Source of the DNA: a plasmid
Sequence record: NZ_LC532224.1
Reading direction: 5' to 3' (one strand)
DNA length: 64,000 bases
In this document: piece by piece, positions 2,368-56,891 of the stretch
Layout of the letters: every line of letters begins with the position of its first letter
Position numbering within the stretch: the first letter of the stretch is position 1
Notes under the pieces: model-generated
Told to the model about the DNA's origin: nothing
The model's input: the letters and a program-made list of their open reading frames with translations, nothing else
The model's database searches: none
Position numbers and translations under genes: made by a program

Positions 2368-2426
2368 AAGCAGACGGCGGGAAGAGAATGTTCAAAAGTG
2401 ACTTTTGGACACGCACATTAACGTGG

Positions 2427-3292: not shown

Positions 3293-3310
3293 GGAAAAGT
3301 TACTTTTGCG
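3293..3310. promoter_or_regulatory. Palindromic motif copy ggAAAAGTTACTTTTgcg (upstream of 2883-3281)
   Basis: Motif family member. Confidence 0.45.
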
Positions 3311-14715: not shown

Positions 14716-15516
14716 TCAATAATCCTTTAACATAACTTTATTTGTTAAAGTGTTGAACACATCCTGACGGTGACTGGTGAACATAGTGTCATAACGTAAT
14801 AGTTCCATCAAATCATCACTAACTTTTCCTAACCGGATGTCAGCAGACAATTCATAAGCCCAGGCAAAAACTTTCGTTTTAAGTGAAACACTCTCTTCAA
14901 TATGCCCTTGTGAGAAAGCAATTGTACGTGGGAAAAGAACGACATCGTTAATTGTTTTTAACGATGAATAACCAATGTCTTTAATAGCATCAGCTGTAGT
15001 TGGTTTTAAACCAAAGAAAATACTTACAAACTCTGGTGCGAGCATTGAGATAAAGAACACCTGCATAAAGTAGTCATTCTGTATATCAACACATTTAGAA
15101 CGCAACTCATGAATCTTCTTGGGATTATAGATATCCACTGTACCATTCAGAAAAGTCACTTTTTCACCGGCATCGTAAATACCATAGTCAATATCATTTG
15201 TATCATATTCACGAATTACATTGGAATCACCGTCCAAGACCGCAGAAAAAAACCTCTCCCATGTAATTTCCTTTCCGAGTGTACGCGGAACCAAAAAACT
15301 ACCTGGACGTGTTTCCACTTCAAAAGCTAAATCAGCGGCTGTACTAAATCCTTTCCCAAATAGGCGACGCTGGAGAAGAGGAGTCCCAGTTTGATATGCA
15401 GAAGATCCATGCACAGGCAATAACATTAAAAATGCACGGTAACTACGAATAAGCGAAATCTCAGTGCGGAAAAGTTTACCGAGTAAGCTACGAGTTAAAT
15501 TATCAGATTCTGACAT
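14716..15516 (-). CDS. Hypothetical protein, 266 aa, operonic with the zinc-ribbon protein
   Basis: 2-bp gap to downstream gene; palindromic motif 75 bp upstream of its start. Confidence 0.4.
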   Translation of the reverse strand: MSESDNLTRSLLGKLFRTEISLIRSYRAFLMLLPVHGSSAYQTGTPLLQRRLFGKGFSTAADLAFEVETRPGSFLVPRTLGKEITWERFFSAVLDGDSNVIREYDTNDIDYGIYDAGEKVTFLNGTVDIYNPKKIHELRSKCVDIQNDYFMQVFFISMLAPEFVSIFFGLKPTTADAIKDIGYSSLKTINDVVLFPRTIAFSQGHIEESVSLKTKVFAWAYELSADIRLGKVSDDLMELLRYDTMFTSHRQDVFNTLTNKVMLKDY

Positions 15517-15588: not shown

Positions 15589-15606
15589 GTGAAAAGTAAC
15601 TTTTAG
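15589..15606. promoter_or_regulatory. Palindromic motif copy gtgAAAAGTAACTTTTag (75 bp upstream of 14716-15516)
   Basis: Motif family member. Confidence 0.5.
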
Positions 15607-16074: not shown

Positions 16075-16093
16075 GTCAAAAGTAACTTTAGGG
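16075..16093. promoter_or_regulatory. Palindromic motif copy gtcAAAAGTAACTTTAggg (upstream of the relaxase operon)
   Basis: Motif family member. Confidence 0.5.
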
Positions 16094-20651: not shown

Positions 20652-22735
20652 TGTCAGATTCGAAGAGGACTAACCTCCATGCACAAGAGAATTTTTATCG
20701 GCCTATTCTTGAGTATCGTAGTGCCTCAATACTTTTGATTTGTTCGGTTTCTATGCTTTATATGGGACTTTCTTCAGACGGACTGGACATCGCCCCAATA
20801 GTTCTGTTCACCTCAATATTGCTTTTTTTGCTGTGCCTTTATCGTTGCAAAACAGCAGCGCCATTTTTGATGGCTCATTGGCGTGTATTCAAGCGACATT
20901 TCATGTTCGTTAGTCTTGATTCACTGCGTGTAATTAACAAAAGTAACTTTTTCTCCAATGAGCGAAAGTATCGTCAACTGGTTCAGGATTATCAAAATAA
21001 AAATAAGGATATACCCGAGCGAAAGTCCTATTTTTGTGATGGGTTTGAGTGGGGTCCGGAACATGCGGATCGGGCATATCAAATAGCTAACCTCTCCAGT
21101 GATAAACGTGAGATCGAGTTGCCATTCGTCTTCAACCCAATTAAGAGACATTTTGACGCAATGGCTCGTAAGATGGGCGGCAGCAATGCAATTTTTGCTG
21201 TGGAACGTAGGGAACCCATATTTGTAACTGAAGACAATTGGTTTGGTCATACTCTGATAACCGGAAACGTGGGTACCGGGAAAACGGTGCTACAGCGTTT
21301 ACTAAGCATTAGCATGCTTCATCTTGGTCATGTTGTTGTTGTCATAGATCCAAAGAACGATGCAGAGTGGCGAGAATCTCTAATGGAAGAGGCTAAGACC
21401 CTCGGTCTTCCTTTCTATAAATTTCATCCTGGCCAGCCAGCATCTTCGGTCTGTATTGATGTCTGCAACACCTATACTAATGTTTCTGACCTAACATCTC
21501 GTCTTTTGAGCTTGGTGACAGTTCCCGGTGAGGTTAACCCATTCGTTCAGTATGCCAAGGCTCTCGTTTCCAATGTGATTTCCGGGCTTTCTTACATAGA
21601 GAAAAAGCCTTCTATTTATCTGATTCACAAGAACATGAAAAGCCACATGTCTATTGTGAATCTTACAGTCAAGGTAATGGAGTCATGTTACGCGAGATAT
21701 TATGGTTACGATGTCTGGACCGAAAAAGTTAAGTACGTCGCTAACGATACCTTGCCGGTACGTTTCAAGCGTCTCGCTGAATGGTTTACGGCTCATTTCA
21801 TGAATTACGAGGGGTCCGAACAAATAGACTGGTTAGATACTGTTTCCCAGCTTATTGATTACTCAATGTCCGACCCAGAGCATATGGCTAAAATGACCGC
21901 AGGTATTATGCCTGTTTTCGATATGCTCATTGAAAAACCTTTAAATGAGCTTTTATCTCCTAACCCGAACTCAGTATCATCAAGAGAAATTGTAACAAGC
22001 GAAGGGATGTTCAGCACTGGCGGGGTGCTATACATTTCGCTTGATGGCCTTTCAAACCCCGATACAGCAGCTGCTATTTCTCAATTAATAATGTCAGATC
22101 TGACCTCCTGTGCCGGTAGTCGCTACAACGCTCAAGATGGTGATATGTCAGCTAATTCCAGGATAAGTATTTTTGTTGATGAGGCACACTCAGCCATTAA
22201 CAACCCTATGATTAACCTTCTGGCGCAGGGTCGTGCAGCGAAAATTGCACTGTTTATTTGCACCCAAACCATCTCCGACTTTATTGCTGCGGCAAGTGTT
22301 GAAACTGCCAATCGAATTACGGGGCTCTGCAACAATTATATAAGCTTGCGAGTCAACGATACTCCTACTCAGACGCTTGTTGTAGAGAACTTTGGTAAGA
22401 GTGCGATAAGCACAAATATGGTCACTTATACGACCGGTTCAGAAACATCTTTGCCGCATAATAACTTCTCAGGTTCAATCTCAGAAAGAAAGCAGACAAC
22501 TTTAGAAGAGAGTATTCCAAAGGATCTCTTGGGTCAGGTCCCTATGTTTCACATAGTTGCCAGGCTTCAAGATGGCAGGAAGGTTGTAGGCCAAATCCCT
22601 ATTGCTGTTGCTGAGAAACAAATGAAGCCAAACACAACTCTGTCGGAAATGCTTTTCAAGAAGGCCGGAAAAGTTACTTTGCGTCAAAATCTCGATATCA
22701 AAAATCTTAATAAATTTCTAAGGAAGTTGCATTGA
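20651..22735 (+). CDS. traG: Type IV coupling protein (TraD/TraG-family, FtsK-like ATPase), 694 aa
   Basis: Two N-terminal TM helices, Walker A GNVGTGKT, Walker B DEAH; same length as IncHI coupling protein TraG. Confidence 0.8.
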   Translation: MSDSKRTNLHAQENFYRPILEYRSASILLICSVSMLYMGLSSDGLDIAPIVLFTSILLFLLCLYRCKTAAPFLMAHWRVFKRHFMFVSLDSLRVINKSNFFSNERKYRQLVQDYQNKNKDIPERKSYFCDGFEWGPEHADRAYQIANLSSDKREIELPFVFNPIKRHFDAMARKMGGSNAIFAVERREPIFVTEDNWFGHTLITGNVGTGKTVLQRLLSISMLHLGHVVVVIDPKNDAEWRESLMEEAKTLGLPFYKFHPGQPASSVCIDVCNTYTNVSDLTSRLLSLVTVPGEVNPFVQYAKALVSNVISGLSYIEKKPSIYLIHKNMKSHMSIVNLTVKVMESCYARYYGYDVWTEKVKYVANDTLPVRFKRLAEWFTAHFMNYEGSEQIDWLDTVSQLIDYSMSDPEHMAKMTAGIMPVFDMLIEKPLNELLSPNPNSVSSREIVTSEGMFSTGGVLYISLDGLSNPDTAAAISQLIMSDLTSCAGSRYNAQDGDMSANSRISIFVDEAHSAINNPMINLLAQGRAAKIALFICTQTISDFIAAASVETANRITGLCNNYISLRVNDTPTQTLVVENFGKSAISTNMVTYTTGSETSLPHNNFSGSISERKQTTLEESIPKDLLGQVPMFHIVARLQDGRKVVGQIPIAVAEKQMKPNTTLSEMLFKKAGKVTLRQNLDIKNLNKFLRKLH
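22667..22683. promoter_or_regulatory. Palindromic motif copy ggAAAAGTTACTTTgcg (3' end of the coupling-protein gene, 50 bp before the next gene)
   Basis: Motif family member; second near-copy inside the same gene at 20936-20955. Confidence 0.35.
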
Positions 22736-27123: not shown

Positions 27124-27408
27124 TTATTTAAGCTGGTCATCGTCTCTGGCCAGCATAGCCCAACCATTCGCCTGGTTTTCGCGGGAGTAAGGATTCATTT
27201 CAAAATAACTATCTACCGCGTCGCTGTCCGCAACAGAACTGTTGTTAGCTCTCTTTGAACCCTGAACCACTACAGCATCAACCTCTGCGGCTTTCCCGTT
27301 GCGCTGTACCAGGATTTTAACCGTATTGGGCTTACGTCTTGCGAGCAGTTTGTTGGCGATAAAAAGCACAACAATCCAGGCCAAAAGCACGTATAAAAAT
27401 GTATTCAT
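27124..27408 (-). CDS. Small membrane-anchored protein, 94 aa
   Basis: RBS aaggaggg; N-terminal TM helix. Confidence 0.45.
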   Translation of the reverse strand: MNTFLYVLLAWIVVLFIANKLLARRKPNTVKILVQRNGKAAEVDAVVVQGSKRANNSSVADSDAVDSYFEMNPYSRENQANGWAMLARDDDQLK

Positions 27409-27568: not shown

Positions 27569-27586
27569 CAGAAAGTTACTTTTCCG
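27569..27586. promoter_or_regulatory. Palindromic motif copy cagAAAGTTACTTTTccg
   Basis: Motif family member; about 160 bp upstream of 27124-27408. Confidence 0.5.
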
Positions 27587-28496: not shown

Positions 28497-28865
28497 TTAC
28501 CCTTCAAATCCAAAGACGAAACGGACGCTGCCGTTCTCCACGTGGAGACGCTTTACTTCTTCGACAAATTCCTGGATCACCTCTCCGGCGTTATCGGGTG
28601 GTATGGCTGACAAAATTTCTTCCGAAGTCAGCCATGAGTATGAATGTTCACCGAATAAATCATCATCTTCGGACGGTATATCATCAGGTAATCCGCGTAA
28701 TGCGTGGATAAAAACTGCTGATGTGCTCGCCCTTTCACGATCTACATCAAATCCGAGCCAGGCAAAGTGGAGATATGATCGGTCCCCTTTATAATTGCTT
28801 GATAAATTAATCCATTTACCAGGCTTTTCTTCCCTTTGAAATCGCCAGCAGATATCAACGCCCAT
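28497..28865 (-). CDS. Hypothetical protein, 122 aa
   Basis: ORF with plausible start; no domain recognised. Confidence 0.4.
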   Translation of the reverse strand: MGVDICWRFQREEKPGKWINLSSNYKGDRSYLHFAWLGFDVDRERASTSAVFIHALRGLPDDIPSEDDDLFGEHSYSWLTSEEILSAIPPDNAGEVIQEFVEEVKRLHVENGSVRFVFGFEG

Positions 28866-29090
28866 TAAGAAACTCCATTACTATCGTTCGTATGAGATAA
28901 CTATCATTTCAGAATACTATGACTTCTTCCCGTATAGAACTAATCGCTCACGCCATTTAGCTACTTACTTTTTTTACGTACGCTTGCAGCGCAGTACCTT
29001 GAGAGAAGTAAGTAAGACTGGGCGAAGCCAACCGGTTCCGCCACCTCGCTCACCGGCTTTTAGGCGTAAGCACTGAAGTCAGCCTCCATG

Positions 29091-29633
29091 CTAACTGGCG
29101 AGCCTGCGAAAGTCAGACTCGTTGTTATAAAGCGGCATATCGTAAGCAGTGTCTGAAATGAACATTCGGATCTGCTCAAGCGTCATGCCACAATGAAAAC
29201 GGGTTACGCTCACATTGGCCCGGGGGAAGTCAGCACAAAATGCATTCAAAACATTCTCATGGACAATACCAATGTTGATTAACGCAGCTGGCCCGTTGTC
29301 ACGGAAAGATACGACACGGAATCCCCCATACCAGCCTGACTGGGAGAAAAATGAAAATGCACTCGTTGCCAGACCATTAGACAGGTCATAGCGCAATTTC
29401 CCGCTCAGAGACTGGCTGTCTCTGCTGTACACGCGATTAATGAAAATGCCGGGACCAACTTCTACCGGCTGCTTGTTGCTTGCTAAACACGGAAAGCCCA
29501 CCAGCGAAACCTCCCTTTCTCCTAACCAGTTTACCTGATACCCGGCAGTGAGAAAGTCAGTCAGTTCTACGCCAGAAAGAGCATTAATGGCCGCAATATC
29601 GGTATCCAAAATATTTACGTTTTTCATATTCAT
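29091..29633 (-). CDS. Hypothetical protein, 180 aa (downstream gene of a two-gene cassette)
   Basis: 61-bp gap to upstream ORF on the same strand; no confident domain call. Confidence 0.4.
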   Translation of the reverse strand: MNMKNVNILDTDIAAINALSGVELTDFLTAGYQVNWLGEREVSLVGFPCLASNKQPVEVGPGIFINRVYSRDSQSLSGKLRYDLSNGLATSAFSFFSQSGWYGGFRVVSFRDNGPAALINIGIVHENVLNAFCADFPRANVSVTRFHCGMTLEQIRMFISDTAYDMPLYNNESDFRRLAS

Positions 29634-29694
29634 CTCATCTATATTCTAAAGTGCGTTTTTTGTCTATCAGCCCGAGGATTGAAAATTTGAATAT

Positions 29695-30132
29695 TTAATG
29701 TGACAGAAAAATACCTGTCACCTTTTCAAAAACTGCCTGCAATTGAATATCGAGAGAGTCCATTTTAAAATCCACCAGCTCAGCTTTATTATCGCAAACC
29801 GAATAAAAATAGGAGTCAAATGCGTCTGTATCTTCATCTTTAAAAATACGGAAGGAATTAATTTTATTATGCCCTTCAAATTCGGCATGAATACCATAGC
29901 GAACCGAGCCGTCATCGAACTGAACAACCCGTCGTACAGAATTAATCCGGACGTACTGTTTTAAGGCCCTCGCGAAATCGGCATTTAACGCCAACGCTCG
30001 TAAGATTGAATCAGCGGTTTCATTCTGCTTTTTACGATCATATTCAAACATCCCACAGCCGGTGTTACGAAAGACCGGCTGAAGAGCATTAACCAGGTTG
30101 AAGGAATCCACGTTTCTGTCGTTTCTGTACAT
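29695..30132 (-). CDS. Hypothetical protein, 145 aa (upstream gene of a two-gene cassette)
   Basis: RBS ggggcaggagatatctcATG; operonic with 29091-29633. Confidence 0.4.
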   Translation of the reverse strand: MYRNDRNVDSFNLVNALQPVFRNTGCGMFEYDRKKQNETADSILRALALNADFARALKQYVRINSVRRVVQFDDGSVRYGIHAEFEGHNKINSFRIFKDEDTDAFDSYFYSVCDNKAELVDFKMDSLDIQLQAVFEKVTGIFLSH

Positions 30133-30176
30133 GAGATATCTCCTGCCCCTCCGCTATACGAAGGGGCTTGATAGGG

Positions 30177-30473
30177 TTACTGCCAGGCTGCGATCACTTC
30201 TTCGCACTGGAAATGAGATAAGCACTGCTGGAGTAAAAGGGCCAGCACCGCTGTGTTAGGGACGCGATTGTTACACCACGCGTTGAATAGCAGCTGCCAT
30301 GGACCGGCATAATACCCGGCCAGTTTCTTTTTTTGTTTATCTGTGCAGCAGCTGGAAATGGCCTGCTGATAAAGGCTTTCATTCTCGGCACCAGAGCGTT
30401 GTTGCAGTGCCTGATAAATATAGGAGTAGACAGAATCGGAGCAATTAGATGCATAGGCCAGATTGGTTTTCAT
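30177..30473 (-). CDS. Hypothetical Cys-rich small protein, 98 aa
   Basis: RBS aggaggtattATG; no domain recognised. Confidence 0.35.
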   Translation of the reverse strand: MKTNLAYASNCSDSVYSYIYQALQQRSGAENESLYQQAISSCCTDKQKKKLAGYYAGPWQLLFNAWCNNRVPNTAVLALLLQQCLSHFQCEEVIAAWQ

Positions 30474-30607
30474 AATACCTCCTGTGTTTTTGGGTATTAT
30501 ATAAAACTCCGACCTACTGGCTAATAACCCACACTGTAATTTCTTTTAAAAACACAATAAATTTTCAAAATTGGACCAGTGTGGATTTAAGCGAGCAGTT
30601 TAAATCT

Positions 30608-31168
30608 TTATGAACTAGCTTTCAAAGAGGTTGGTTTTTCGGGAAGTTTTTTGCCAGACCAGCATGTTGGTTTTTTTTCTGTAGTGCAGATTAGCTGGTA
30701 CCTGCCCCTTCTTACCTCTTTGAGCAATGACTGTTTGAAATATGGTAAGCCCAGTTCAAAAACCCAGTAACGACCGTCTGCAAAAACGACTGAATTTTCA
30801 ACGCCATCCGAAGCCACCAAGGATGCATCATTAAGTAGACGTTCTTCATAATGAAATGGTAATGAAAATGTCAGATATAACGCACAAAGTACAAAGATTC
30901 CTGTGAGACTAACTGCCAGTGAACCACAATAACCAGAATAAACATTTAAATTTCTTTTGATAAATTTCTCATGCAAGATTACAAGCAGACAGAATACACA
31001 AGCTACCAGCCCAAATCCTACATGCAGATAAAACTGTCTTATTTCATCATTCCAGACGATGTTGTCCCATTTCGTGCTTAAGATTGAACCCAACAAGGAG
31101 ATAATAAAAGCGGCAATTTGAGAACTGATAAAGTAGGAGAAAGCTGACTTTGAAGTTATTTTTTTCAT
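30608..31168 (-). CDS. Integral membrane protein, 186 aa; IS903 inserted 43 bp upstream of its start
   Basis: Four or more hydrophobic helices. Confidence 0.4.
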   Translation of the reverse strand: MKKITSKSAFSYFISSQIAAFIISLLGSILSTKWDNIVWNDEIRQFYLHVGFGLVACVFCLLVILHEKFIKRNLNVYSGYCGSLAVSLTGIFVLCALYLTFSLPFHYEERLLNDASLVASDGVENSVVFADGRYWVFELGLPYFKQSLLKEVRRGRYQLICTTEKKPTCWSGKKLPEKPTSLKASS

Positions 31169-31211
31169 AGAAACAGGAACCTCTTTACCTCGTTCCTGAT
31201 CAGAGAAAAGA

Positions 31212-32268
31212 GGCTTTGTTGAATAAATCAGATTTCGGGTAAGTCTCCCCCGTAGCGGGTTGTGTTTTCAGGCAATACGCACGCTTTCAGGCATACCTGC
31301 TTTCGTCATTTTGTTCAGCGCTCGTACCAGGGCCATAGCCTCCGCAACCTGACCATCGTAGTCACGCAGCGTCAGTGAACCCCCGAACAGCTGTTTTACC
31401 CGGTACATCGCCGTTTCCGCTATCGAGCGACGGTTGTAATCTGTTGTCCATTTCCACCGCGCATTACTCCCGGTCATTCGCTGATTAGCCACTGCACGGT
31501 TACGGTCTGCATATTCACCGGGCCAGTAACCCGCACCTTTTCGGGGAGGGATAAGCGCGCTGATTTTCTTACGCCGCAGTTCATCGTGACATAGCCGGGT
31601 ATCGTAAGCGCCATCGGCGGCGGCTGACCTGATTTTCCGGTGGGTTTGCCGGATTAACCCGGGGAAGGCCTCTGAGTCCGTAACGTTGTTCAGCGACAGG
31701 TCAGCGCAGATGATTTCATGTGTTTTACTGTCAACGGCGAGATGCAGCTTACGCCAGATACGGCGGCGTTCCTGGCCATGCTTTTTGACTTTCCACTCGC
31801 CTTCACCGAAGACCTTCAGCCCGGTGGAATCAATTACCAGGTGTGCGATTTCACCCCGGGTGGGCGTTTTGAAACTGACATTAACCGACTTTGCCCGCCT
31901 GCTGACACAGCTGTAATCCGGGCAGCGTAGCGGAACGTTCATCAGAGAAAAAATGGAATCAATAAAGCCCTGCGCAGCGCGCAGGGTCAGCCTGAATACG
32001 CGTTTAATGACCAGCACAGTCGTGATGGCAAGGTCAGAATAGCGCTGAGGTCTGCCTCGTGAAGAAGGTGTTGCTGACTCATACCAGGCCTGAATAGCTT
32101 CATCATCCAGCCAGAAAGTTATGGAGCCACGGTTGATGAGGGCTTTATTGTAGGTGGGCCAGTTGGTGATTTTGAACTTTTGCTTTGCCACGGAACGGTC
32201 TGCGTTGTCGGGAAGATGCGTGATCTGATCCTTCAACTCAGCAAAAGTTCGATTTATTCAACAAAGCC
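31212..32268 (-). mobile_element. IS903 (IS5 family), 1057 bp, 18-bp terminal IRs GGCTTTGTTGAATAAATC, 9-bp TSD GAGAAAAGA on both sides
   Basis: Ends and duplication read directly (TSD 31203-31211 and 32269-32277); internal 322-aa ORF is the IS903 transposase. Confidence 0.9.
31268..32236 (-). CDS. tnpA: IS903 (IS5-family) DDE transposase
   Basis: Near-identical to the known IS903/IS102 transposase sequence by recollection; inside the IS ends. Confidence 0.9.
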   Translation of the reverse strand: MKDQITHLPDNADRSVAKQKFKITNWPTYNKALINRGSITFWLDDEAIQAWYESATPSSRGRPQRYSDLAITTVLVIKRVFRLTLRAAQGFIDSIFSLMNVPLRCPDYSCVSRRAKSVNVSFKTPTRGEIAHLVIDSTGLKVFGEGEWKVKKHGQERRRIWRKLHLAVDSKTHEIICADLSLNNVTDSEAFPGLIRQTHRKIRSAAADGAYDTRLCHDELRRKKISALIPPRKGAGYWPGEYADRNRAVANQRMTGSNARWKWTTDYNRRSIAETAMYRVKQLFGGSLTLRDYDGQVAEAMALVRALNKMTKAGMPESVRIA

Positions 32269-32689
32269 GAGAAAAGACACAAAACGCACCATGCGCAAAA
32301 AACTGCAAGTCCAGATGCAATAATCTCGCGTAAAAACATATTAAACGTTTCCGATAATGAATAAGTAATTACCATATCCTCTCCGTAAGTCTACATATAA
32401 TTCAGACGTGACAAATAATTAAAGGCATTGCTATTCTATCATTATGCATTGCGTTTAAAATCATTTCTAATTCAGCAGAGTAGCGATACAGGCATTTCGC
32501 TATCCTAAAATCTGGTAGCTTTCCATTTCCTTGCTGAGATAAATCAAAATAATTCTATTTATTGCCTATTCGGATGCTGCAAAACCTTATAAATCCGGAT
32601 GTATATCACTTAACAGTGAACCATTCGGTGACTTGCTCTCCGTGAGGTCCACCGGGTTTATCCAGTAGGGAACATTCTGCTTTTACCGT

Positions 32690-32971
32690 TTACTGCATAC
32701 GCGAGCAGGAATTCTGTTGCAGTTCTGCATTTGCCTGCTTTTCCAGTGCTGTCATAACCCGGCGGAGCATCGCCAGAGCCTGAACAGGCGAGCTCCCAAA
32801 CTGCACTTTCACTTCATCCGTATCATGATCCTGAATCAGGTCGAGGATGTTCACTTCGATCCCTGCCCCGTTTTCATCTTTTGCCGTGCACTGAATACTT
32901 ACCCGGGTCACCGAATCCGTCAGGACTGGCAGTGGGTTAGTCTTGTCTACGTTGATAAAAGCCTTCTTCAT
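32690..32971 (-). CDS. Hypothetical protein, 93 aa
   Basis: ORF with plausible start; no domain. Confidence 0.35.
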   Translation of the reverse strand: MKKAFINVDKTNPLPVLTDSVTRVSIQCTAKDENGAGIEVNILDLIQDHDTDEVKVQFGSSPVQALAMLRRVMTALEKQANAELQQNSCSRMQ

Positions 32972-33036
32972 TGCCCTGTTTCCCCTTGTCCTGAAAAAGT
33001 TACCGACCCGTCCGGATGGAGGGGTCGGTCAGAAAA

Positions 33037-34221
33037 TCATGCCTGTCCCTTATTCATCTTCTCAGCATGCTTACGCAGGTACTCTTTCAGGTCAGCATGA
33101 GCATTGATGATATCGTTCATTTCATCATTGGTCAGAACAAGCGTGTAAGTATCAGTGCTGACAGATTCACCTTCTTTAAGCTTGGCTTCTTCAGCAATAC
33201 GTTCAAAAATCGGGATCGCGGTGTCGGCAATGACGGTCACGGTCTTTTTGTTCAGAACGCTGGACATGGATGGTGCTTTACCTGCCGGGTTCTGTTTAGG
33301 AGCGCTGTCCTTTGGAGCCGGAGCTGGTTCCTGTACCGGTGGCGTAACCAGCGTCTCTGTATTGCTTTCATCATTCAGTTGATCCGGTACCGGGGTGTTA
33401 ACGGTAGCATTACCTGCCGGTTGCTCATCACCGGAGTTTTCCGGAGTCTGCGGATCTGCCATGCGCTCTTCTACCTTGGCAGCTTTGACGAATTTCAGCG
33501 TGTTTTTCGTCGCTTTACCATAGATGGAGATCGCCTTGTTGATGTTATCTACCGCATCCTCACCGCTGTACATATACTCGTCCAGCGCAACGTACATGCT
33601 CACCTGATCGCTCACAAGCATGGTCTGTAGTTCAGAAGGCAGGTCCAGTACGCGAACCATCTGGCGAAGATGCTGCTCTGATTTACCACGTTTTTTTGCC
33701 AGTTCCGCAAAGGTCTTAGGCTCTTCTTTATCTTCAACAAGACGCTTAATTGAAAGCGCTTCAGCTACGACAGACAGCGCCAGGTTGGAGTTGCCGGTCA
33801 GGGTGAAGAGTTCTGCTTTTGAAGCGCTACCGCGAAACTCTTCGCAGCGAATACGAGTAATGCGTTCACGCCCTTCTGCTTCCAGCTGGCGGTTTGCAAT
33901 AGCGATGGAACGGATACGGCAAGCCCCCTGACGCAGTACAGGTACGCCATTAACCATCTGAACAACGATAGGCGTCACGCTGAACGGGTCTTCCATGTAG
34001 GCATCGGCCAGGCTGTTCAGGTGTTCCACAACGTGAGGCATTGAATAGTAGAGCTCGCCCATACCGGCCGTGCGGGTGTTAAAGCCTTCCTGCTCTACAA
34101 CAACCGAAGGGTCAATGATAAGGCCGTTACCTTTACGGGCACCGTTACCAGTGCGTTCCAGGTAACCACGAAGGCTGATTTCGTTGCTGTTGTTTTTTAC
34201 TTCAGTTTCGATTGCGGACAT
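33037..34221 (-). CDS. ParB/Srx-superfamily (ParB-like nuclease/partition-type) protein with Pro/Glu-rich linker
   Basis: N-terminal region resembles ParB/Spo0J N-domain; two copies of the GAAAAGTAACTTTTC palindrome at 90 and 220 bp upstream of its start. Confidence 0.5.
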   Translation of the reverse strand: MSAIETEVKNNSNEISLRGYLERTGNGARKGNGLIIDPSVVVEQEGFNTRTAGMGELYYSMPHVVEHLNSLADAYMEDPFSVTPIVVQMVNGVPVLRQGACRIRSIAIANRQLEAEGRERITRIRCEEFRGSASKAELFTLTGNSNLALSVVAEALSIKRLVEDKEEPKTFAELAKKRGKSEQHLRQMVRVLDLPSELQTMLVSDQVSMYVALDEYMYSGEDAVDNINKAISIYGKATKNTLKFVKAAKVEERMADPQTPENSGDEQPAGNATVNTPVPDQLNDESNTETLVTPPVQEPAPAPKDSAPKQNPAGKAPSMSSVLNKKTVTVIADTAIPIFERIAEEAKLKEGESVSTDTYTLVLTNDEMNDIINAHADLKEYLRKHAEKMNKGQA

Positions 34222-34307
34222 TTTTGTTCTCTCTTTTGGTTGGTTGTTTAACTGCGCTACAACACAACAATACCAGGTTCGACATTTTTTCTAATAGGTT
34301 GCACAGA

Positions 34308-34325
34308 AGAAAAAGTAACTTTTCT
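34308..34325. promoter_or_regulatory. Palindromic motif copy gaAAAAGTAACTTTTctt (90 bp upstream of the ParB-like gene)
   Basis: Motif family member. Confidence 0.5.
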
Positions 34326-34435
34326 TAAAAAAAATTCCTGAGACAATACTACTCGATCCGTCCGTTTTAAATCTTCACAACAGTGGGCCGTTTTTACGTT
34401 TAAGCAAAATAGCTGGTTCAGAAGGTGAGTCGGAG

Positions 34436-34455
34436 AGAAAAGTTACTTTTCCGGT
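34436..34455. promoter_or_regulatory. Palindromic motif copy gagAAAAGTTACTTTTccgg (220 bp upstream of the ParB-like gene)
   Basis: Motif family member. Confidence 0.5.
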
Positions 34456-34637
34456 TGTCTGGGCCAGTGATGAGAGAGTGGCAGGACAGGAATGGCTAAA
34501 CCGGTGCGGGTCTCTTGTAAGTCGCAGGGGATTGAGGAGATATAGAGGTAAACCGGTACGTTCAGTTTTTGGATTGAGCCGGGCTTTTGGCCCGGGCTTA
34601 AGGAAGCGGAAATTTGAACGAACTGGCAGGTAATGAT

Positions 34638-34814
34638 TTATGCCGCCGACAGCTGGCCGTCAGTGCTTTGCTGTTCTGGTTTGACAGTTGGGGGATAACC
34701 GGCAGTTAGCCGCTGGCATTCCGCATCACAGAAAGCCCTGAGGTTGCTGAAGACGGACTCCATGAAATCAGCATGAGCATACGAGTCTACAGGACGTGTC
34801 TTGTTATCTTTCAT
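34638..34814 (-). CDS. Small hypothetical protein (start MKDNK after RBS GAGGAG)
   Basis: RBS; short ORF only. Confidence 0.25.
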   Translation of the reverse strand: MKDNKTRPVDSYAHADFMESVFSNLRAFCDAECQRLTAGYPPTVKPEQQSTDGQLSAA

Positions 34815-35324
34815 CTTGTTCTCCTCAATCATTATTAAAACCAGCGGATTTAGTTCCTGGCGCTCCATCTGCTGACCGGCTTTCCCAGAGAGCAGCGATG
34901 TGTCGGGTTCTGTTTCTCATTTTATCGTTTTCATCGGGCCCATCCGGCCGTATAAGAGACCGATTTGGCATGTTTAAGAAACGTACTGGCGACATTAAAA
35001 GCTGAGGTTGGCTTTGGAATAAAAGGATACTTTTCCCGTTTGTCAGGTCTTTCGCTACCGCTGCACGATGATTCTGTCAGGCATTCTGCGCCCTCCTTGG
35101 CTGTACATCTTGAAACAAGCGGTGGGATGTTCCCTTCCCCCTGCTCACCGCAGAATAATTGGCAAGTCCCGACGGTCGTTCCGTACGAGCCGGGTCCAAA
35201 TAATGAATAAATACAACGCCACTTCAATTGTATTGACAATAGAAGTTAGGAGGATCATAGTGTCATTCATGGTGCGGCTTTCGCACCACCGCCCCGGCGG
35301 TACCGGGCAGAACTGGAGTACCTC

Positions 35325-36269
35325 ATGAAACTTTCCCGTCAGACGACTTCTGATACTTCTGTTGATGGCCGTTCACGCGCATATGCCTGGGGCCGTGTCC
35401 ATTATTTCATTATCGAACATGCACCAATGGCTGAGCTGGTCGCTATTGACGAGCTGCTGGAAAAAGCTGGCTGGAGCAATGACGGCTGTCCGAACTATGA
35501 GAAAGATGACGAGTTTGGTAATGCTGGTTACAGCTGTGGTTACTGGATCGATATTGACAGCGTGGGAAGCTTCAAGGCTGACTACAAACGTCTTAAGGGT
35601 GAGATTAGTGCGCATATCGCCTCAAAGGCGGCAGAGGTGGAGATCCGCGTACTGGACTCGATGTCCGACAAAGAATGTAAAGATGTTGCCTCGGTGGCAT
35701 GTACTGTTCGCCGTGACTTACGTACGCAGTCCGAATCGCTTCATTCACTGCGTACTATCGTAACGGTTGATCATTACAATCCCTATGTGATCACCAGCCG
35801 CCCGCTGAGCATTTCCGCCTGGACACTTATCCACGACTGTCTGAAAACCGGCACCATCAATGACGTCTGTTCACGGTTGAGTTCATTAATCCTGCACTCT
35901 GAAGCCGCGATTGCCCGTTGTAAGGGAAGCTCCGACTACTCTTCGGAACACGCTCAGCTATCGTTTTTTGCTGGTAACGACTATGTCACCAGACGCACCC
36001 TTGTTGATGCAGCTCACGAAGAGGCTCTGCGAATGAACCGCCGCTTTGATGAACGTATTGCAATGAACGCGGATTCTGATGCCAGAAGGCTCCAGTGCGA
36101 ATTCAACCTGAGCAACCATGTCGTACAGCGTCGGACCGTTGAATCTGCTCATATCCAGGCAATCAACGAAGACGTCACCCGTTCACAGGCGGAACCACGC
36201 TGCCCTGGAAAGCTTCTTCTGAAAATGACCAGTCATGAGGAAGTGCGGGACTCACTGAGCACCTGTTAG
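35325..36269 (+). CDS. Hypothetical protein, 314 aa
   Basis: First of five co-oriented ORFs; no domain. Confidence 0.45.
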   Translation: MKLSRQTTSDTSVDGRSRAYAWGRVHYFIIEHAPMAELVAIDELLEKAGWSNDGCPNYEKDDEFGNAGYSCGYWIDIDSVGSFKADYKRLKGEISAHIASKAAEVEIRVLDSMSDKECKDVASVACTVRRDLRTQSESLHSLRTIVTVDHYNPYVITSRPLSISAWTLIHDCLKTGTINDVCSRLSSLILHSEAAIARCKGSSDYSSEHAQLSFFAGNDYVTRRTLVDAAHEEALRMNRRFDERIAMNADSDARRLQCEFNLSNHVVQRRTVESAHIQAINEDVTRSQAEPRCPGKLLLKMTSHEEVRDSLSTC

Positions 36270-36364
36270 TCCAGCGACACCCCCTGCGGCTCTACTACCG
36301 GGCCGCAGTCTGCTCCGGCCAGATGGTGCCAGTGGCGTAATGAATTTGTTTAATAAGGCTGAGT

Positions 36365-36967
36365 ATGATGAATAAAGAACAACTAATCGACAAACTGGAA
36401 CGCGTGGTATGTGGTCAGTACTCCTACGAAATGCAGGAGCTTGCGTATTCGGCCCTCTGCTGCATTAAAGGCACCCCGGACGACTGCGCTAAGTTCCCTG
36501 TTACGCGTCCGCTGCCTGACACCTTAGTGGACGTATGGGACGAGATCGGGCAATACCTTGGCACAGGCAAAGCCATTGAAACTCGCAGTTGCGGCGTTTC
36601 GCTTCTGCTTCATGGACACTGCTACGATTCAAATCATGTGCTGTACTGGCGCAATGCTGGCGCACTTCCAGCAGCTTGCGATACGCCACTGGCTGGTGGG
36701 TCTCGCAAACTGTTCACCTGCTCAGCCTGTGGAGTGGACGGTCTGGATGAACCACCTGAAACCAGTTGCCACTGCTGCACAGAGGGGGCCCACTGGATTG
36801 AGAGCAGGCTCTTCACCTCCGGGCAGGCAGACCCTGAAGAATTTAGACCCGTGGCGGTCGTGAAAGAGTGTGCAGGCTCAACGCCGGATGATCGGCTCAT
36901 CTGGAGCGTGATTGAACAGCTCAACGGCGAACTGGCGGAAGGCGATAAACTATTTAAGCGACGCTGA
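36365..36967 (+). CDS. Cys-rich hypothetical protein, 200 aa (multiple CxxC pairs)
   Basis: Seventeen Cys including CHCC and CSAC motifs; possible metal-binding protein. Confidence 0.45.
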   Translation: MMNKEQLIDKLERVVCGQYSYEMQELAYSALCCIKGTPDDCAKFPVTRPLPDTLVDVWDEIGQYLGTGKAIETRSCGVSLLLHGHCYDSNHVLYWRNAGALPAACDTPLAGGSRKLFTCSACGVDGLDEPPETSCHCCTEGAHWIESRLFTSGQADPEEFRPVAVVKECAGSTPDDRLIWSVIEQLNGELAEGDKLFKRR

Positions 36968-37020
36968 CAGATCACGTCAGCATTTATATCAGACGAACTC
37001 CAGAATAATTTAAAGCAACC

Positions 37021-37377
37021 ATGAACATGAAAAAGCCCAAAGCTGCATTACAGAATGCCATGAAAGAAGATGTGCCAGCTGTGACACAGATTCAGATGCG
37101 ATCTACGGTTTCCAGAAAGGTTCGCTATGTAAAACAGGCAAATCGAGAGGGTCTGAAATTATCTGAGTGGATGTCGCGGCATCTCGACGCTGTCTGTGAT
37201 ACCGCAGATGAGATTCATAAAGGCAAACGCTCAACTCCGGTTGCGCCTGGGAAGATTCCCCCTGAGGTATACCAGGTGATATACGATCAGTGCGGCGGGT
37301 TCGTGGAGTGTGATGCTAATGCCCAGGTAATCTGGGAAGCCTGCCGTGATGCCATTCTTAACGGAGACAAAGGGTAA
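37021..37377 (+). CDS. Hypothetical protein, 118 aa
   Basis: ORF in operon context. Confidence 0.4.
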   Translation: MNMKKPKAALQNAMKEDVPAVTQIQMRSTVSRKVRYVKQANREGLKLSEWMSRHLDAVCDTADEIHKGKRSTPVAPGKIPPEVYQVIYDQCGGFVECDANAQVIWEACRDAILNGDKG

Positions 37378-37423
37378 ACGGCAGGTATCGCCTGTCATTT
37401 TTACCCTTGTGAGGAAAATCCTG

Positions 37424-37627
37424 ATGAACCATGAGAGCCGAACTGTATACCTGAACACGGCCATTGAGGCCCTGTTGAAAGCTGAGGCGGCTCTGAACGA
37501 GCTGGCATTAGCCTATGTACTCAAACCAGGTGAAAAGGCAAGCGCATGCCATCCCCGAACCGGTACGCTTTCCACAGCTTCCCAGGTAAGAAAACTTCGC
37601 CGTGTTCTAGAAAAAAACAAGTTATGA
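37424..37627 (+). CDS. Small hypothetical protein, 67 aa
   Basis: RBS gaggaaaatcctgATG. Confidence 0.3.
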   Translation: MNHESRTVYLNTAIEALLKAEAALNELALAYVLKPGEKASACHPRTGTLSTASQVRKLRRVLEKNKL

Positions 37628-37908
37628 CGGCCCTTATACGCTGGCATAATGTACCGTGCTTCGCTCATCCCAGCAGTATGGGTTTTAAACTCTTCCATTT
37701 TTAAGAGTACGGGAAGAGCCTTATTATTGTCGCATACCCTACGGATGCATTGCAGTTCAAACCGCTGTTCGGTGCAATTATTGCTGTATCCGGCGGATTT
37801 GAAAATGACAGAAATAGTGATGTAAAGCTCCGCCATTAAAGAAATGCCCCGTAGTTTGGCGAATCAACTTTCTGAATTATCTCGATGAACACCATTTAAG
37901 GAAATCGA

Positions 37909-38229
37909 ATGTGTGATTTTTGCAGGGCTGACGAAAATTACTTTCATATGGCAGAATGCGTGTATGACCAACTGGTTAAAGAGTATCCCGTAATGTGGCT
38001 GCGGGATTCAACCCGGATCGGGGCCTGCTACCTCTGTCGAGAACTGCTGTCGCCGGAGGGGATGGTCCTGGCGATGCAGAGCGCTTTCCCTGCGAAGGGA
38101 TGGCGGCTGCGTATTTGGTACAATGAAACCATTGACGAAGAGATAGAACCGCAGCGTGGAGACTGTATTGAGCTGTCCTCCAGGGCGGACGCTCTGCTGT
38201 CCTTCATGTCGTTCCAGGAAAAGGTTTAG
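37909..38229 (+). CDS. Hypothetical protein, 106 aa (CxxC...CxxC N-terminus)
   Basis: RBS aaggaaatcgaATG. Confidence 0.4.
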   Translation: MCDFCRADENYFHMAECVYDQLVKEYPVMWLRDSTRIGACYLCRELLSPEGMVLAMQSAFPAKGWRLRIWYNETIDEEIEPQRGDCIELSSRADALLSFMSFQEKV

Positions 38230-38825
38230 CGCTGCGGCCCCCCTCACAAAAAGGCGCTTTCCGCGACAAATCTGGTACGACCGGACAACGTTGAGTCAAT
38301 TCTTGCTTCCCCGCAGAAGAATCCCTATGAAGTAAAGTAGAGGTAGGCATTACGCCCACCAGCAAACCTGATAACTGTTCTTTGCGTAACATCCTCAAAC
38401 TTCTGGTGCCTTCGTAGACTGCGATGCGAATGCCCATGAGCTGAATTCACCGTATCATTTGACCGGATGCAGCGAGAACAGAAATGACAATGTTTGAACG
38501 ATTTGCCAGACGGCCATAAAACTCTACTGGGTACAGAATAAGGACTGACCGCAATGGCTACGTTCTATGAGCTACCGACCAGTGAGAAGTCCATTGTTTC
38601 CGGTACGTGCCCGGACGAGCACCGGTGAAATTTTTCCCGACTGGATTACGCTAAGGCTTTTGAACGGTTTGCGTGAAGTGGGACTCTTTGGGTCTGGTTC
38701 TTGATTTATACAAAAGGCTATATGCCACAAGACGGGAGGAAAAAAGGGTTTCCCCGACTGGAGAAACCCTTTCAAAAGGTGCCGATGGCATACTAATCCA
38801 CACCCCGAAAAGAGGGGGTTGCCCC

Positions 38826-40164: not shown

Positions 40165-40699
40165 GGGTTGCCCCCCTCTTTGTCAGCTACTTACCGGATT
40201 CGTAGGCCAGGATAGCAGATACCTCCCTTGTTCCGTCTTTCATCCGCAACTCGCAAAGCGAGTTTCGTGTGAGCCAGGTGAATATCAACAGCGTTAAACA
40301 AACTATTAATATGCACAAAACAATGGGTTGGTTCGGCATTTTCATGGCCTTCTTCTCCTTGCATTTAAGCAGGCAAGAGGCTACTCTGAATGTGACTAGC
40401 ATACAGGGGCCTCGGGTTAATTGAAAAATTACTCGGGGCTTTCTGCTTTTACCACAGTCAAACAGTGTTACCGCTGGCTGGGGCAAAAGCCTCCAGCACC
40501 AGCGTTATTATACCACCCTGCCCTGATCAGCCAAACACCCCGCCTACATAAATTACTGATTTTTCATTTATTTGACATGATTCACTTCCGGTTGTCGGCG
40601 AAAGTCATTTTATACTAAAGAAAAGGGTAACGGGCAGCTGCTGGGTCGGAACATACAGTGCAGTTCCTGCCCGTTTAATTTCCGGATGCAATGGTAGGA

Positions 40700-51829: not shown

Positions 51830-51847
51830 TTAAAGTTACTTTTCTGG
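51830..51847. promoter_or_regulatory. Palindromic motif copy ttAAAGTTACTTTTctgg
   Basis: Motif family member; 130 bp upstream of 51460-51699. Confidence 0.5.
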
Positions 51848-53518: not shown

Positions 53519-53848
53519 TCAATCTTTGCGCTGCTGTACGATACCAGTAATTACAGGCGCCGAGTTTAACATCATGAAAAGTAGCCCAATAATGAATGAC
53601 GCAACGCCAGCTGCGGTGCCTAACTTCTGACTGAACACCATTGAAACAAAGTACATATTTGGGATAAAAACGGACATAGCAATCACGAAAAGTAACTTAT
53701 TCAGATAATTATTTATTCGGGTCTTAACCTCAACTCTATCATAAAAAGCCATCGAAACGTAAGCAGTTATCAGTGAATAAAAAGACCATGTCATATAGTT
53801 AACCGATTCATTAAATGCCTCTCGCAAAAGCAAAGCACTTTCTGTCAT
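53519..53848 (-). CDS. Small membrane protein, 109 aa
   Basis: Three hydrophobic helices. Confidence 0.35.
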   Translation of the reverse strand: MTESALLLREAFNESVNYMTWSFYSLITAYVSMAFYDRVEVKTRINNYLNKLLFVIAMSVFIPNMYFVSMVFSQKLGTAAGVASFIIGLLFMMLNSAPVITGIVQQRKD

Positions 53849-56800: not shown

Positions 56801-56891
56801 GGCAGGAGAAAGAAACGCGGCCACCTCAACATAAAAAAGCCACCCTAATAATGACTCCTTGTGATCCTACCCACGTAATGTGGACACGGCC

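Follow-up and report, generated by a model that had tools for sequence, protein, structure and literature searches.

An orphan ParB-family protein and a conserved palindrome suggest a KorB-like control system across the IncHI plasmid backbone

The 64,000-nucleotide stretch of plasmid DNA analysed here (the window; sequence record NZ_LC532224.1) is IncHI2 plasmid backbone, and it encodes a 394-aa protein (WP_001272971.1) that existing annotation calls either 'hypothetical' or 'DNA-binding protein'. A sequence-only reading of this DNA had singled it out as the sole ParB/Srx-type protein in the window, which proved correct: two paralogues are encoded on the same plasmid type, and both sit outside the window. 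We found no published work on this gene or on the palindrome motif described below, and neither the paper on IncHI2 evolution nor the one on the R27 transcriptome mentions the gene. The gene, the domains of its product and a hairpin adjoining it are as follows:

33037..34221, minus strand: gene for the orphan ParB-like protein, 394 aa (open reading frame, annotation, Pfam, AF2, Foldseek)
33787..34173, minus strand: ParB/Srx-type N-terminal domain, codons 17-145 (high pLDDT, alternating strands and helices, Foldseek, profile alignment to Spo0J)
33907..33936, minus strand: variant phosphate-binding P-motif LRQGACRIRS, of the form GxxRxR-A/S, codons 96-105 (translation, alignments)
33457..33786, minus strand: ParB-type helix-turn-helix domain, codons 146-255 (Pfam PF17762, phmmer)
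33643..33684, minus strand: predicted recognition helix KSEQHLRQMVRVLD, codons 180-193, aligned to GKSRSHVANTMRLL of Caulobacter ParB
33259..33456, minus strand: disordered Pro-rich acidic linker, codons 256-321 (pLDDT 23-37, composition, ortholog alignment)
33040..33258, minus strand: small helical C-terminal domain, codons 322-394 (pLDDT 54-79, alignments)
32994..33029, minus strand: hairpin followed by a U-run just past the stop codon (centroid -20 kcal/mol, z only -1.3)

The hairpin is a possible weak intrinsic terminator, one that the terminator scan did not call. The only structured RNA that Rfam returned in the region is sok (40343-40501), and PADLOC gave no match to anti-phage defence there.

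A Pfam scan of the protein at E values up to 1 returned HTH_ParB (PF17762) as its sole match (residues 149-209; its 26.6 bits, E 7e-6, clear the gathering cut-off of 22.6), with no match to KorB, KorB_C or the P1-ParB domain PF08775, and the Pfam ParBc domain went undetected. By phmmer, the helix-turn-helix matched Caulobacter ParB (6s6h and 6t1f, E 1.5e-4). The AF2 model is confident over residues 20-250 (pLDDT about 90), and the Foldseek search that the earlier reading had proposed, run on this model, recovered ParB, KorB and Noc structures over about 220 columns with E about 1e-7. KorB (8qa9) gave the top superposition among the PDB matches (TM 0.65 of target), covering the N-terminal domain and the helix-turn-helix. 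As modelled, then, the protein has a full ParB fold, consisting of an N-terminal domain, a ParB-type helix-turn-helix, a linker and a small C-terminal domain. The sequence-only reading had also described a Pro/Glu-rich linker ahead of an acidic C-terminal domain, of which the first part holds: residues 256-321 include 13 prolines in 66 residues, carry a net charge of -7, have pLDDT below 50, and differ between orthologs in both length and sequence. The C-terminal domain, by contrast, is just slightly acidic (net charge -3); it is predicted by AF2, at moderate confidence, to form a helix-strand-helix, it contains a conserved TYTLVLTNDEM segment that is common to the paralogues and to a homologue from IncC plasmids, and it is presumed to be the dimerisation domain.

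Three motifs mark the N-terminal domain: GFNTR (residues 46-50), LRQGACRIRS (96-105) and GNSNL (143-147). In a profile alignment, G99-A-C-R102-I-R104 falls on GERRxR of Spo0J and, more broadly, RQG(A/H)CRxRA sits on AGERRxRA; the GxxR phosphate motif, which is the conserved P-motif of the ParB fold (PMC12704722), is therefore kept. G99, R102 and R104 are invariant in orthologs, as is Cys101 within the same motif. The canonical ParB gating residues (the Q of QPR, the E of GERR, and ENLQR) are absent from the alignment of the 394-aa protein, which has FNTR (N for Q), GACR (A/H for E) and (T/D)GNSN in place of ENLQR. In ParB, residues of the Q52 and E93 type together with ENLQR drive CTP hydrolysis; Q52 and E93 are the positions mutated in solved structures of M. 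xanthus ParB, and both are replaced here. Because these residues are replaced, the CTP dependence 'as in ParB/KorB' that the sequence-only reading had in mind appears doubtful. Relatives in the superfamily mostly read G-H-C-R at the P-motif, which resembles the Srx/DGHxR branch, a branch that goes with ATP or other NTPs (PMC12704722). The G-(A/H)-C-R motif could serve a nucleotide other than CTP, or could be redox-sensitive through its invariant cysteine.

Two short palindromes precede the gene:

34311..34323, no strand: proximal palindrome AAAAGTAACTTTT, centred 96 nt ahead of the ATG
34438..34450, no strand: distal palindrome AAAAGTTACTTTT, centred 223 nt ahead of the ATG

Both are copies of the 13-bp palindrome AAAAGTWACTTTT, and the 127 bp between them agree with the pair of copies about 130 bp apart that had been reported from sequence. 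The presence of several sites ahead of the gene is conserved: all seven lineages (IncHI2, IncHI1, Pseudocitrobacter with three sites, Buttiauxella, Yersinia, a Leclercia type, and Klebsiella IncHI1B with five sites) have two or more in the 600 bp that precede the ortholog, at protein identities of 36-65%, the lowest of these belonging to the Klebsiella ortholog. The spacing of the sites ranges from 36 to 212 bp, and because it is not conserved, the cooperativity that had been read into this pair is unfounded. (The genome-collection scan contributed only three loci.) The proximal site is identical in IncHI1 at 13 of 13 positions, within flanks that are 70% identical, and an equivalent occurs 96-116 nt before the ATG in six of the seven ortholog lineages; the IncHI1 counterpart of the distal site is GAAAGTAACTTTT, about 225 nt upstream. 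A conserved TATTAG-like element lies upstream of the gene, 22 nt after the site centre, and a sigma-70 scan returned nothing upstream of the gene.

The palindrome recurs throughout the plasmid. Counting 13-mers with up to one mismatch, the window contains 13 where 0.17 would be expected, a number that no shuffle out of 100 attained. A complete IncHI2 plasmid has 45 sites against 0.58 expected, or 55 when the 11-bp core is used, all of them in backbone DNA. Apart from the two upstream of the gene, those in the window are:

2394..2406, no strand: palindrome with central G, between two convergent genes
3295..3307, no strand: palindrome in the 24-bp gap of co-directional genes, 26 nt before the start codon
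12534..12546, no strand: intragenic palindrome at the 5' end of trhH (13/13 in IncHI1, flanks 62% identical)
15151..15163, no strand: intragenic palindrome with central C, in a 266-aa gene (11/13 in IncHI1)
15592..15604, no strand: palindrome in the oriT/Tra1 divergent intergenic region (13/13 in IncHI1), 82 nt upstream of the leftward operon running through trhH
16078..16090, no strand: palindrome (one mismatch) in the oriT/Tra1 intergenic region, 192 nt upstream of mobI
20939..20951, no strand: palindrome inside the gene for the coupling protein, which is annotated traD (13/13 in IncHI1, flanks 71% identical)
22669..22681, no strand: palindrome (one mismatch) at the 3' end of the gene for the coupling protein, with the next gene about 60 nt away (12/13 in IncHI1)
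27571..27583, no strand: intergenic palindrome (one mismatch), 169 nt upstream of a 94-aa gene (27124-27408, minus strand)
51831..51843, no strand: intergenic palindrome (one mismatch), 138 nt upstream of a small minus-strand gene
53688..53700, no strand: palindrome (one mismatch) inside a mechanically called open reading frame (53519-53848, minus strand), in a region where window and reference plasmid differ

The palindrome is the sole enriched one on the plasmid apart from IS copies; no second one assignable to the paralogues emerged, the other top matches coming from IS26 copies. That it belongs to some larger repeat or to a mobile element was ruled out: its flanks hold no information, and it is therefore a free-standing, protein-sized site. 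Intergenic positions are over-represented (13 of 24 sites, or 54%, against the 23.5% of DNA that is intergenic; p = 0.001), 17 of the 45 sites (about 40%) are intragenic, and some others lie between convergent genes. Across 21 intergenic sites, no fixed operator-promoter geometry was found with respect to start codons or to -10/-35-like hexamers. The palindromes are not classical operators: simple operator occlusion is unlikely because so many are intragenic, some separate convergent genes, and the intergenic ones keep no constant distance to start codons or promoter-like hexamers.

Seven orthologous positions could be compared between IncHI1 and IncHI2, four of them intragenic: 88 of their 91 site bases are common to both plasmids (11-13 of 13 per site), in flanks that are 62-71% identical. 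By this comparison, the palindrome is a plasmid-wide site under purifying selection. Every locus that carries the ortholog has 3-5 sites per 10 kb, whereas the IncC locus, which has only a distant homologue, contains zero AAAGTNACTTT sites, and the palindrome is likewise absent with the remote homologue from Yersinia enterocolitica.

A dispersed palindrome and a ParB fold might suggest partition, and partition ParBs (Spo0J, ParABS) do share with the 394-aa protein their fold, the helix-turn-helix family PF17762 and a palindromic target. However, an ordinary partition ParB was rejected. The gene has no adjacent parA, as the sequence-only reading had stated: its neighbours are small and without a match to ParA or any other informative Pfam family, and the nearest parA is about 70 kb away. 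There, outside the window, this plasmid type carries both a P1-type ParA/ParB system and ParM/ParR, so that a partition role for the 394-aa protein is unneeded. Par1 comes with 249-bp repeats of its own, and its ParB carries PF08775; BLASTP found no similarity between that ParB and the 394-aa protein, and the stretch of the reference plasmid with these repeats and the Par1 genes (28727-40146) contains zero palindrome sites. A clustered centromere beside the operon is absent, the sites being dispersed over the whole backbone. Nor does the protein have the ParA-interaction peptide G-(K/R)-G-(L/F/I), given as an LG(R/K)GL-type motif in PMC12704722: its nearest segment, RKGNGL, which is part of a predicted beta-hairpin, has Asn in place of K/R. 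The replaced catalytic residues are a further difference from partition ParBs. A conserved small partner gene was also sought and rejected, the 93-aa downstream open reading frame being limited to three lineages.

A looser structural or segregation accessory, in which the dispersed sites act like multiple parS to condense or position the 200-300-kb plasmid or to feed a partition ATPase, is in our view very unlikely. It would make sense of the fairly even spread of sites (about one per 4-5 kb of backbone), many of them intragenic or flanked by convergent genes, which are odd places for a transcription operator, and of site clusters that adjoin replication genes: IncHI2 sites 22580 and 23366, and five sites next to a RepB-family gene in Klebsiella. 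Noc of Bacillus subtilis is similarly an orphan ParB paralogue with many dispersed palindromes and no ParA, and it is among the structure matches (7ol9). Noc, however, is chromosomal, acts in division-site selection, has canonical GERR and ENLQR, and bears an N-terminal membrane-targeting helix; the N-terminus of the 394-aa protein, MSAIETEVKNNSNEIS, is polar rather than hydrophobic and by eye unlike such a helix. The missing parA and ParA-binding peptide and the two complete partition systems elsewhere weigh against an accessory role as well, as does the absence of the gene from about 10% of related plasmids. Some 116 plasmids with paralogue 2 (at least 95% identity) lack the 3-kb region, and the 394-aa gene is therefore dispensable for maintenance.

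The existence of paralogues raises the question of which protein reads the palindrome. They and an orphan ParB-like protein of IncC plasmids (WP_000268395.1, annotated 'hypothetical' or 'ParB') belong to the same superfamily as the 394-aa protein, at about 30% identity over the N-terminal domain plus helix-turn-helix; all are found on MOBH/MPF_F plasmids and have in common FN(T/S)R, a motif of the G-H-(C/R)-R type and a C-terminal strand-helix segment, but their recognition helices differ from that of the 394-aa protein. We know of no described function for the IncC homologue or the IncHI paralogues. It is conceivable, if unlikely, that another plasmid factor (paralogue 2, paralogue 3 or something unrelated) reads the palindrome and that the 394-aa gene is simply a heavily regulated member of its regulon. 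In IncHI2, IncHI1A and Klebsiella plasmids, a single site precedes the ATG of paralogue 2 (387 aa) by 87-112 nt, and because of this promoter site in three lineages, the paralogue remains a candidate binder or co-binder. An attempt to separate it from the ortholog by co-occurrence failed, as both travel together in all IncHI lineages; moreover, the plasmid offers no second enriched palindrome as a target for a paralogue, and Klebsiella plasmids have 5-site clusters away from the ortholog. Against this reading, the ortholog has the largest upstream cluster of the three ParB-like genes in every lineage examined (2-5 sites, compared with one for paralogue 2 and none for paralogue 3), and its recognition helix is the one that is conserved along with the motif. 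E182, Q183, H184 and R186 are invariant in an alignment of 18 orthologs, and all orthologs, but neither paralogue, have S-x-x-H-(L/V/I)-R-(Q/K) in this helix; a point on the other side is that the Klebsiella ortholog carries E182V and Q183T with an unchanged palindrome. The helix of paralogue 2 varies by lineage (SPTTISS, SNTTIAA, SEMAVRQ) despite the invariant motif.

If the 394-aa protein is the binder, KorB of RK2 offers the nearest precedent. The KorB operator OB, TTTAGCSGCTAAA, is likewise a 13-bp odd-centred palindrome present in many copies both near to and far from promoters, with one operator in the promoter of KorB's own operon. KorB also shares the layout of the protein beyond the ParB N-terminal domain and helix-turn-helix: a long linker, acidic and disordered, leads to a small C-terminal domain. 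The differences are nevertheless substantial: the 394-aa protein lacks a KorB or KorB_C match, and its gene has neither an adjacent incC/parA (or any IncC-like gene) nor a korA-like partner in its neighbourhood; there are about 50 sites rather than 12, with the intragenic share noted above; and the P-motif is G-A-C-R rather than G-A-R-R, GNSN replaces ENLQR, the C-terminal domain is predicted to be helical rather than SH3-like, and each plasmid has three ParB-like genes. The KorB-like global regulator put forward in the sequence-only reading is thus partly upheld: in its fold, its want of a ParA, its plasmid-wide conserved palindrome and the conserved set of several sites ahead of the gene, but not in KorB's domains and partners, the placement of the sites or the catalytic residues.

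Cumulatively, our analysis suggests that the 394-aa protein and its approximately 50 palindromes form an undescribed plasmid-wide control system resembling that of KorB. We give slightly less than even weight to the specific proposal that this orphan ParB-family protein of the IncHI backbone binds the palindromes as a distance-acting, self-repressing regulator. Its helix-turn-helix would recognize the 11-13-bp palindrome (A)AAAGT-N-ACTTT(T), and dimers would load at about 50 sites over the roughly 200-kb backbone, including both divergent Tra1 operon promoters, a position upstream of Tra2, positions beside replication genes, and two in the promoter of its own gene. Loaded there, the protein would exert its effect at a distance, probably in the manner of KorB, by forming a nucleotide-gated clamp or a spreading complex, damping transcription of backbone operons and repressing its own gene in a negative feedback. 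We infer here that the 394-aa protein, and not a paralogue, is the binder, that a nucleotide switch is used, and that the effect is repression.

The same sites could, in principle, serve activation. VirB of the Shigella virulence plasmid is of the P1-ParB type and has few sites; it too is an orphan regulator of the ParB family, encoded by a large plasmid of enterobacteria. VirB is a CTP switch that binds inverted repeats, from which, at up to about 1 kb from promoters, it acts remotely on DNA silenced by H-NS (PMC10770331). A comparable anti-silencer on IncHI plasmids would load at the palindromes and remodel or displace H-NS/Hha, thereby activating backbone operons under conditions such as the permissive temperature or recent entry into a new host. 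IncHI conjugation is indeed repressed by H-NS/Hha (PMC7366339). The plasmid encodes homologues of both, with sites at the start of the gene directly downstream of hns (136059) and just after hha (82479), and the lack of a fixed site-promoter geometry is as expected for action at a distance. Nonetheless, we regard anti-silencing as improbable: several sites upstream of the protein's own gene in seven lineages fit negative feedback better, a feature typical of plasmid global repressors, and Pfam finds HTH_ParB only, without the P1-ParB domain that it detects in the Par1 ParB. The Spo0J/KorB-like helix-turn-helix, the approximately 50 sites and their presence in the gene's own promoter also set the 394-aa protein apart from VirB.

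Returning to the KorB-like reading, a more far-reaching version, which we hold with considerable reserve, is that an unusual G-(A/H)-C-R ParB-fold switch and its two paralogues govern the transcriptional or topological state of all 200 kb of the IncHI backbone. This undescribed whole-backbone layer may extend across IncHI1, IncHI2, IncHI1B and their relatives through some 50 conserved palindromes, many of them intragenic, and may operate, for example, at establishment after transfer or in thermoregulated conjugation.

In Salmonella, Enterobacter, E. coli and Klebsiella, resistance genes are carried on IncHI1, IncHI2 and IncHI1B plasmids; blaCTX-M-15 is on the reference IncHI2 plasmid, and the Klebsiella plasmids compared bear the name virNDM5. 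The regulators of IncHI transfer named in the R27 study are HtdA, TrhR/TrhY and H-NS/Hha (PMC7366339), to which the palindrome network, if our interpretation is true, would add a global layer comparable to the IncP kor regulon. One gene and one 13-bp motif would then provide a handle on plasmid cost, establishment and transfer, and the range of ParB-fold switches that function outside DNA segregation would be widened, in this case by one with a non-canonical nucleotide motif.

Databases list the 394-residue ParB-like protein as 'hypothetical protein' or 'DNA-binding protein'; its fold, its HTH and its GxxR motif place it in the ParB superfamily. The ParB HTH was the sole domain reported by Pfam, scoring over its gathering threshold, NCBIfam matches to ParB and Noc were both sub-threshold, and phmmer against the PDB hit the Caulobacter ParB HTH. 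In an AlphaFold2 model based on 18 orthologs, confidence is high over residues 20-250 and moderate over a helical C-terminal domain, with residues 256-321 disordered: this stretch (13 Pro in 66 residues, net charge -7) is the Pro-rich low-complexity linker described in the sequence-only reading. Foldseek, which that reading had suggested running, matched the N-domain and HTH over about 220 columns (E ~1e-7) to PDB structures of M. xanthus ParB with CTPγS, RK2 KorB, Noc, Caulobacter ParB and Spo0J, the best TM-score being that of KorB (8qa9; 0.65 of the target). The predicted recognition helix, S-x-x-H-(L/V/I)-R-(Q/K), is common to all orthologs.

Features of the window
33037..34221, minus strand: ORF of the target protein, 394 residues
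33907-33936, minus strand: P-motif GACR with Cys101, which is invariant among orthologs
31212-32268: IS903 copy with a 9-bp duplication, inserted relative to the reference plasmid
38827-40163: second insertion relative to the reference, encoding a DDE transposase (DDE_Tnp_1)

Two copies of the 13-bp palindrome AAAAGTWACTTTT do precede the gene, as had been read from the sequence, at 34311-34323 and 34438-34450, 127 bp apart. We gathered orthologs from seven lineages, all of which carry the identical palindrome two or more times in the 600 bp before the ortholog; in six of the seven, the centre of one site lies 96-116 nt before the ATG.

Orthologs and upstream palindromes (identity is that of the protein to the window protein)
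IncHI2 (window): reference; 2 sites, centres 96 and 223 nt before ATG
IncHI1 pHCM1 (L008): 65%; 2 sites
Pseudocitrobacter (L012): 64%; 3 sites
Leclercia type (L018): 50%; 2 sites, at about -250 and about -290
Buttiauxella (L013): 47%; 2 sites
Yersinia intermedia (L017): 44%; 2 sites
Klebsiella IncHI1B/IncFIB (L009): 36%; 5 sites

A TATTAG-like element, starting 22 nt past the site centre, is conserved in five aligned upstream regions; if it is a -10 hexamer, the proximal site would overlap the -35 region, which is conjecture. Every ortholog-bearing locus has 3-5 sites per 10 kb, and a 24.6-kb stretch of an IncC plasmid with a distant homologue only has zero. The Klebsiella IncHI1B/IncFIB plasmids also hold dense five-site clusters away from the ParB-like gene (L009:159-1418 and L015:209-540), one of them directly downstream of a RepB-family replication gene, and L015 has nine core sites within 7 kb.

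The palindrome is a genuine site, spread across the plasmid and kept by selection. Allowing at most one mismatch, the window has 13 copies of AAAAGTWACTTTT where 0.17 are expected, and 45 copies, where 0.58 are expected, lie on the whole reference plasmid, pCRENT-193_1 (NZ_CP024813.1; 298,989 bp; typed IncHI2A, MOBH, MPF_F), where the 11-bp core AAAGTNACTTT has 55 copies. In a de novo palindrome count (arms of 5-7 bp), it was the sole enriched palindrome apart from IS26 copies. An origin in a larger repeat is ruled out, because positions past ±6 of the centre hold essentially no information. Every site lies in the backbone: the resistance region (107-196 kb) lacks sites except for one at 136059, in a small segment between IS elements that holds an hns homologue. 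The 93 kb of backbone with annotation holds 24 sites, of which 13 are intergenic, compared with 23.5% intergenic DNA (p = 0.001), and a manual tally of the whole plasmid put 24 sites between genes, 17 within genes and 4 at gene boundaries. Intergenic sites occupy both sides of the divergent oriT/Tra1 region; others lie upstream of the first Tra2 operon, beside replication genes and, as a pair, upstream of the target gene. A constant distance from sites to start codons or promoter-like hexamers was looked for and not found. DNA of IncHI1 (pHCM1) and IncHI2 is only 71-75% identical across the region, and at seven orthologous positions 88 of 91 site bases are shared, against 62-71% identity over the 50-bp flanks. 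Since the 13-mers were kept as their flanks diverged, and four of the seven sites are intragenic, the alignments indicate that purifying selection is acting on the sites themselves.

The target had been described as the only ParB-type protein, which holds for the window; on the plasmid as a whole, tblastn recovered two paralogues outside the window, both with a ParB HTH.

Paralogues on the reference plasmid (L002)
L002:15689-16852, minus strand: paralogue 2, 387 aa, 32% identical to the target
L002:20066-21118, minus strand: paralogue 3, 350 aa, 26% identical to the target

Paralogue 3 is divergent from a RepB-family replication gene and has no site. Paralogue 2 and a Dam methylase gene are divergently oriented, and 87 nt upstream of the paralogue is the variant site AAAAGGTACTTTT, kept in IncHI1A too; one site lies 87-112 nt before its ATG in IncHI2, IncHI1A and Klebsiella plasmids. 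That another protein binds the motif is possible: paralogue 2, given its upstream site and its constant co-occurrence with an ortholog of the target, either belongs to the regulon or could be what binds the motif in place of the target. The recognition helix of paralogue 2 differs among lineages while the motif stays constant, which favours, but does not prove, the 394-aa protein as the binder. AAAGTNACTTT was not found in DNA of the IncC plasmid NC_022522.2 (L010), which carries four copies of a 16-bp palindrome, CTTTCACATGTGAAAG (L010:1219, 4555, 16027 and 19442), that resembles chromosomal parS, one copy lying 64 bp upstream of parA; the product of its orphan ParB-like gene (L010:11944-12882) carries G-H-R-R-R-R. 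Nor was the palindrome found at a remote homologue (25% identity) on the Yersinia enterocolitica plasmid NZ_CP124257.1 (L019:11575-11800), whose upstream region holds a hairpin with 12-bp arms, CCGGTTTTCAATT-TAAG-AATTGAAAACCGG (11707-11736), and several more TTGAAAA/TTTTCAA copies; further superfamily members, too, may have upstream motifs of their own.

No parA partner is adjacent, in agreement with the sequence-only reading: the adjoining genes encode no ParA or other informative domain, no parA/parS module was found at the locus, and the plasmid's Par systems, a P1-type ParA/ParB pair and a ParM/ParR pair, lie about 70 kb away. The P1-type parA/parB pair is preceded by two tandem arrays of a 249-bp repeat (4.1 and 4.5 copies; L002:34110-36689), which hold no palindrome site and probably form the Par1 centromere region; the target has no similarity to Par1 ParB. 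In place of the ParA-binding motif, G-(K/R)-G-(L/F/I) (PMC12704722), the target N-terminus has RKGNGL in a structured hairpin. Lacking a ParA, a ParA-binding peptide and a centromere cluster, the target is rejected as a partition ParB. The gene is also non-essential for plasmid maintenance, because about 116 plasmids with paralogue 2 (at least 95% identity) have no match to the 3-kb target region and database entries often hold a shortened protein (276-281 aa).

That 3-kb region is 95-100% identical in 982 plasmid records (Escherichia, Salmonella, Enterobacter, Klebsiella and others), and a search of phage sequences with it gave no match. The window aligns to positions 232,283-283,271 of pCRENT-193_1, with accessory DNA unlike the reference beyond 53407. 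The target gene is followed by a 93-aa gene, and IS903 is inserted about 420 bp downstream of the latter, splitting this pair from the remaining leftward gene run. The Tra1 transfer genes of the region (trhH, mobI, MobH relaxase and coupling protein) are followed by a long series of small genes of unknown function. Elsewhere are the sok antitoxin RNA of a hok/sok module (40343-40501, minus strand; Rfam RF01794, 84 bits) and, at 54053-58575, a KAP-family P-loop NTPase gene, apparently interrupted by an IS3-family element (rve integrase, 56892-57746) and followed by a TetR regulator, a Zn-dependent dehydrogenase and IS1 in a segment unlike the reference plasmid.

Profile alignment places RQG(A/H)CRxRA on AGERRxRA of Spo0J, so the GxxR P-motif and the next Arg are retained; the Glu and first Arg of GERR become Ala/His and an invariant Cys, QPR becomes FNTR and ENLQR becomes (T/D)GNSN. 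An exhaustive profile search returned 427 cluster representatives, only about 3 of them full-length orthologs. The P-motif of these relatives is mostly G-H-C-R (others are GHHR, GEHR and GECR), the commonest form across 129 superfamily representatives, and resembles the Srx/DGHxR branch of this fold. Binding of nucleotides other than CTP is reported for divergent ParB folds (PMC12704722). Nucleotide binding by the target is plausible; its CTP specificity and CTP hydrolysis are doubtful. The P-motif with its Cys101 is reminiscent of GCHR, the Cys-containing sulfiredoxin motif, and a redox or non-CTP chemistry is conceivable.

The simplest interpretation is a KorB-like system, in which the orphan ParB-fold protein would recognise the 13-bp palindrome, autoregulate, and act on backbone operons from many dispersed loading sites. 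Sliding or spreading fits better than simple operator occlusion, because the sites are dispersed, partly intragenic and without promoter geometry. The earlier proposal of a KorB-like global regulator is partly supported, by the fold and the many dispersed sites; unlike KorB proper, the target has no KorB or KorB_C domain and no KorA or IncC partner. In working, KorB would be closest to it, VirB and Noc being other orphan analogues. A serious rival has the target acting as a VirB-like anti-silencer that counters H-NS/Hha, known regulators of IncHI transfer (PMC7366339), and a structural role is possible. Literature searches found no paper on the target gene, its accessions or the motif, and all the functions put forward here for the protein are proposals. 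The plasmids without the region and the shortened proteins are natural loss-of-function variants open to comparison. IncHI plasmids are clinically important, and the nucleotide motif of the protein is unusual.
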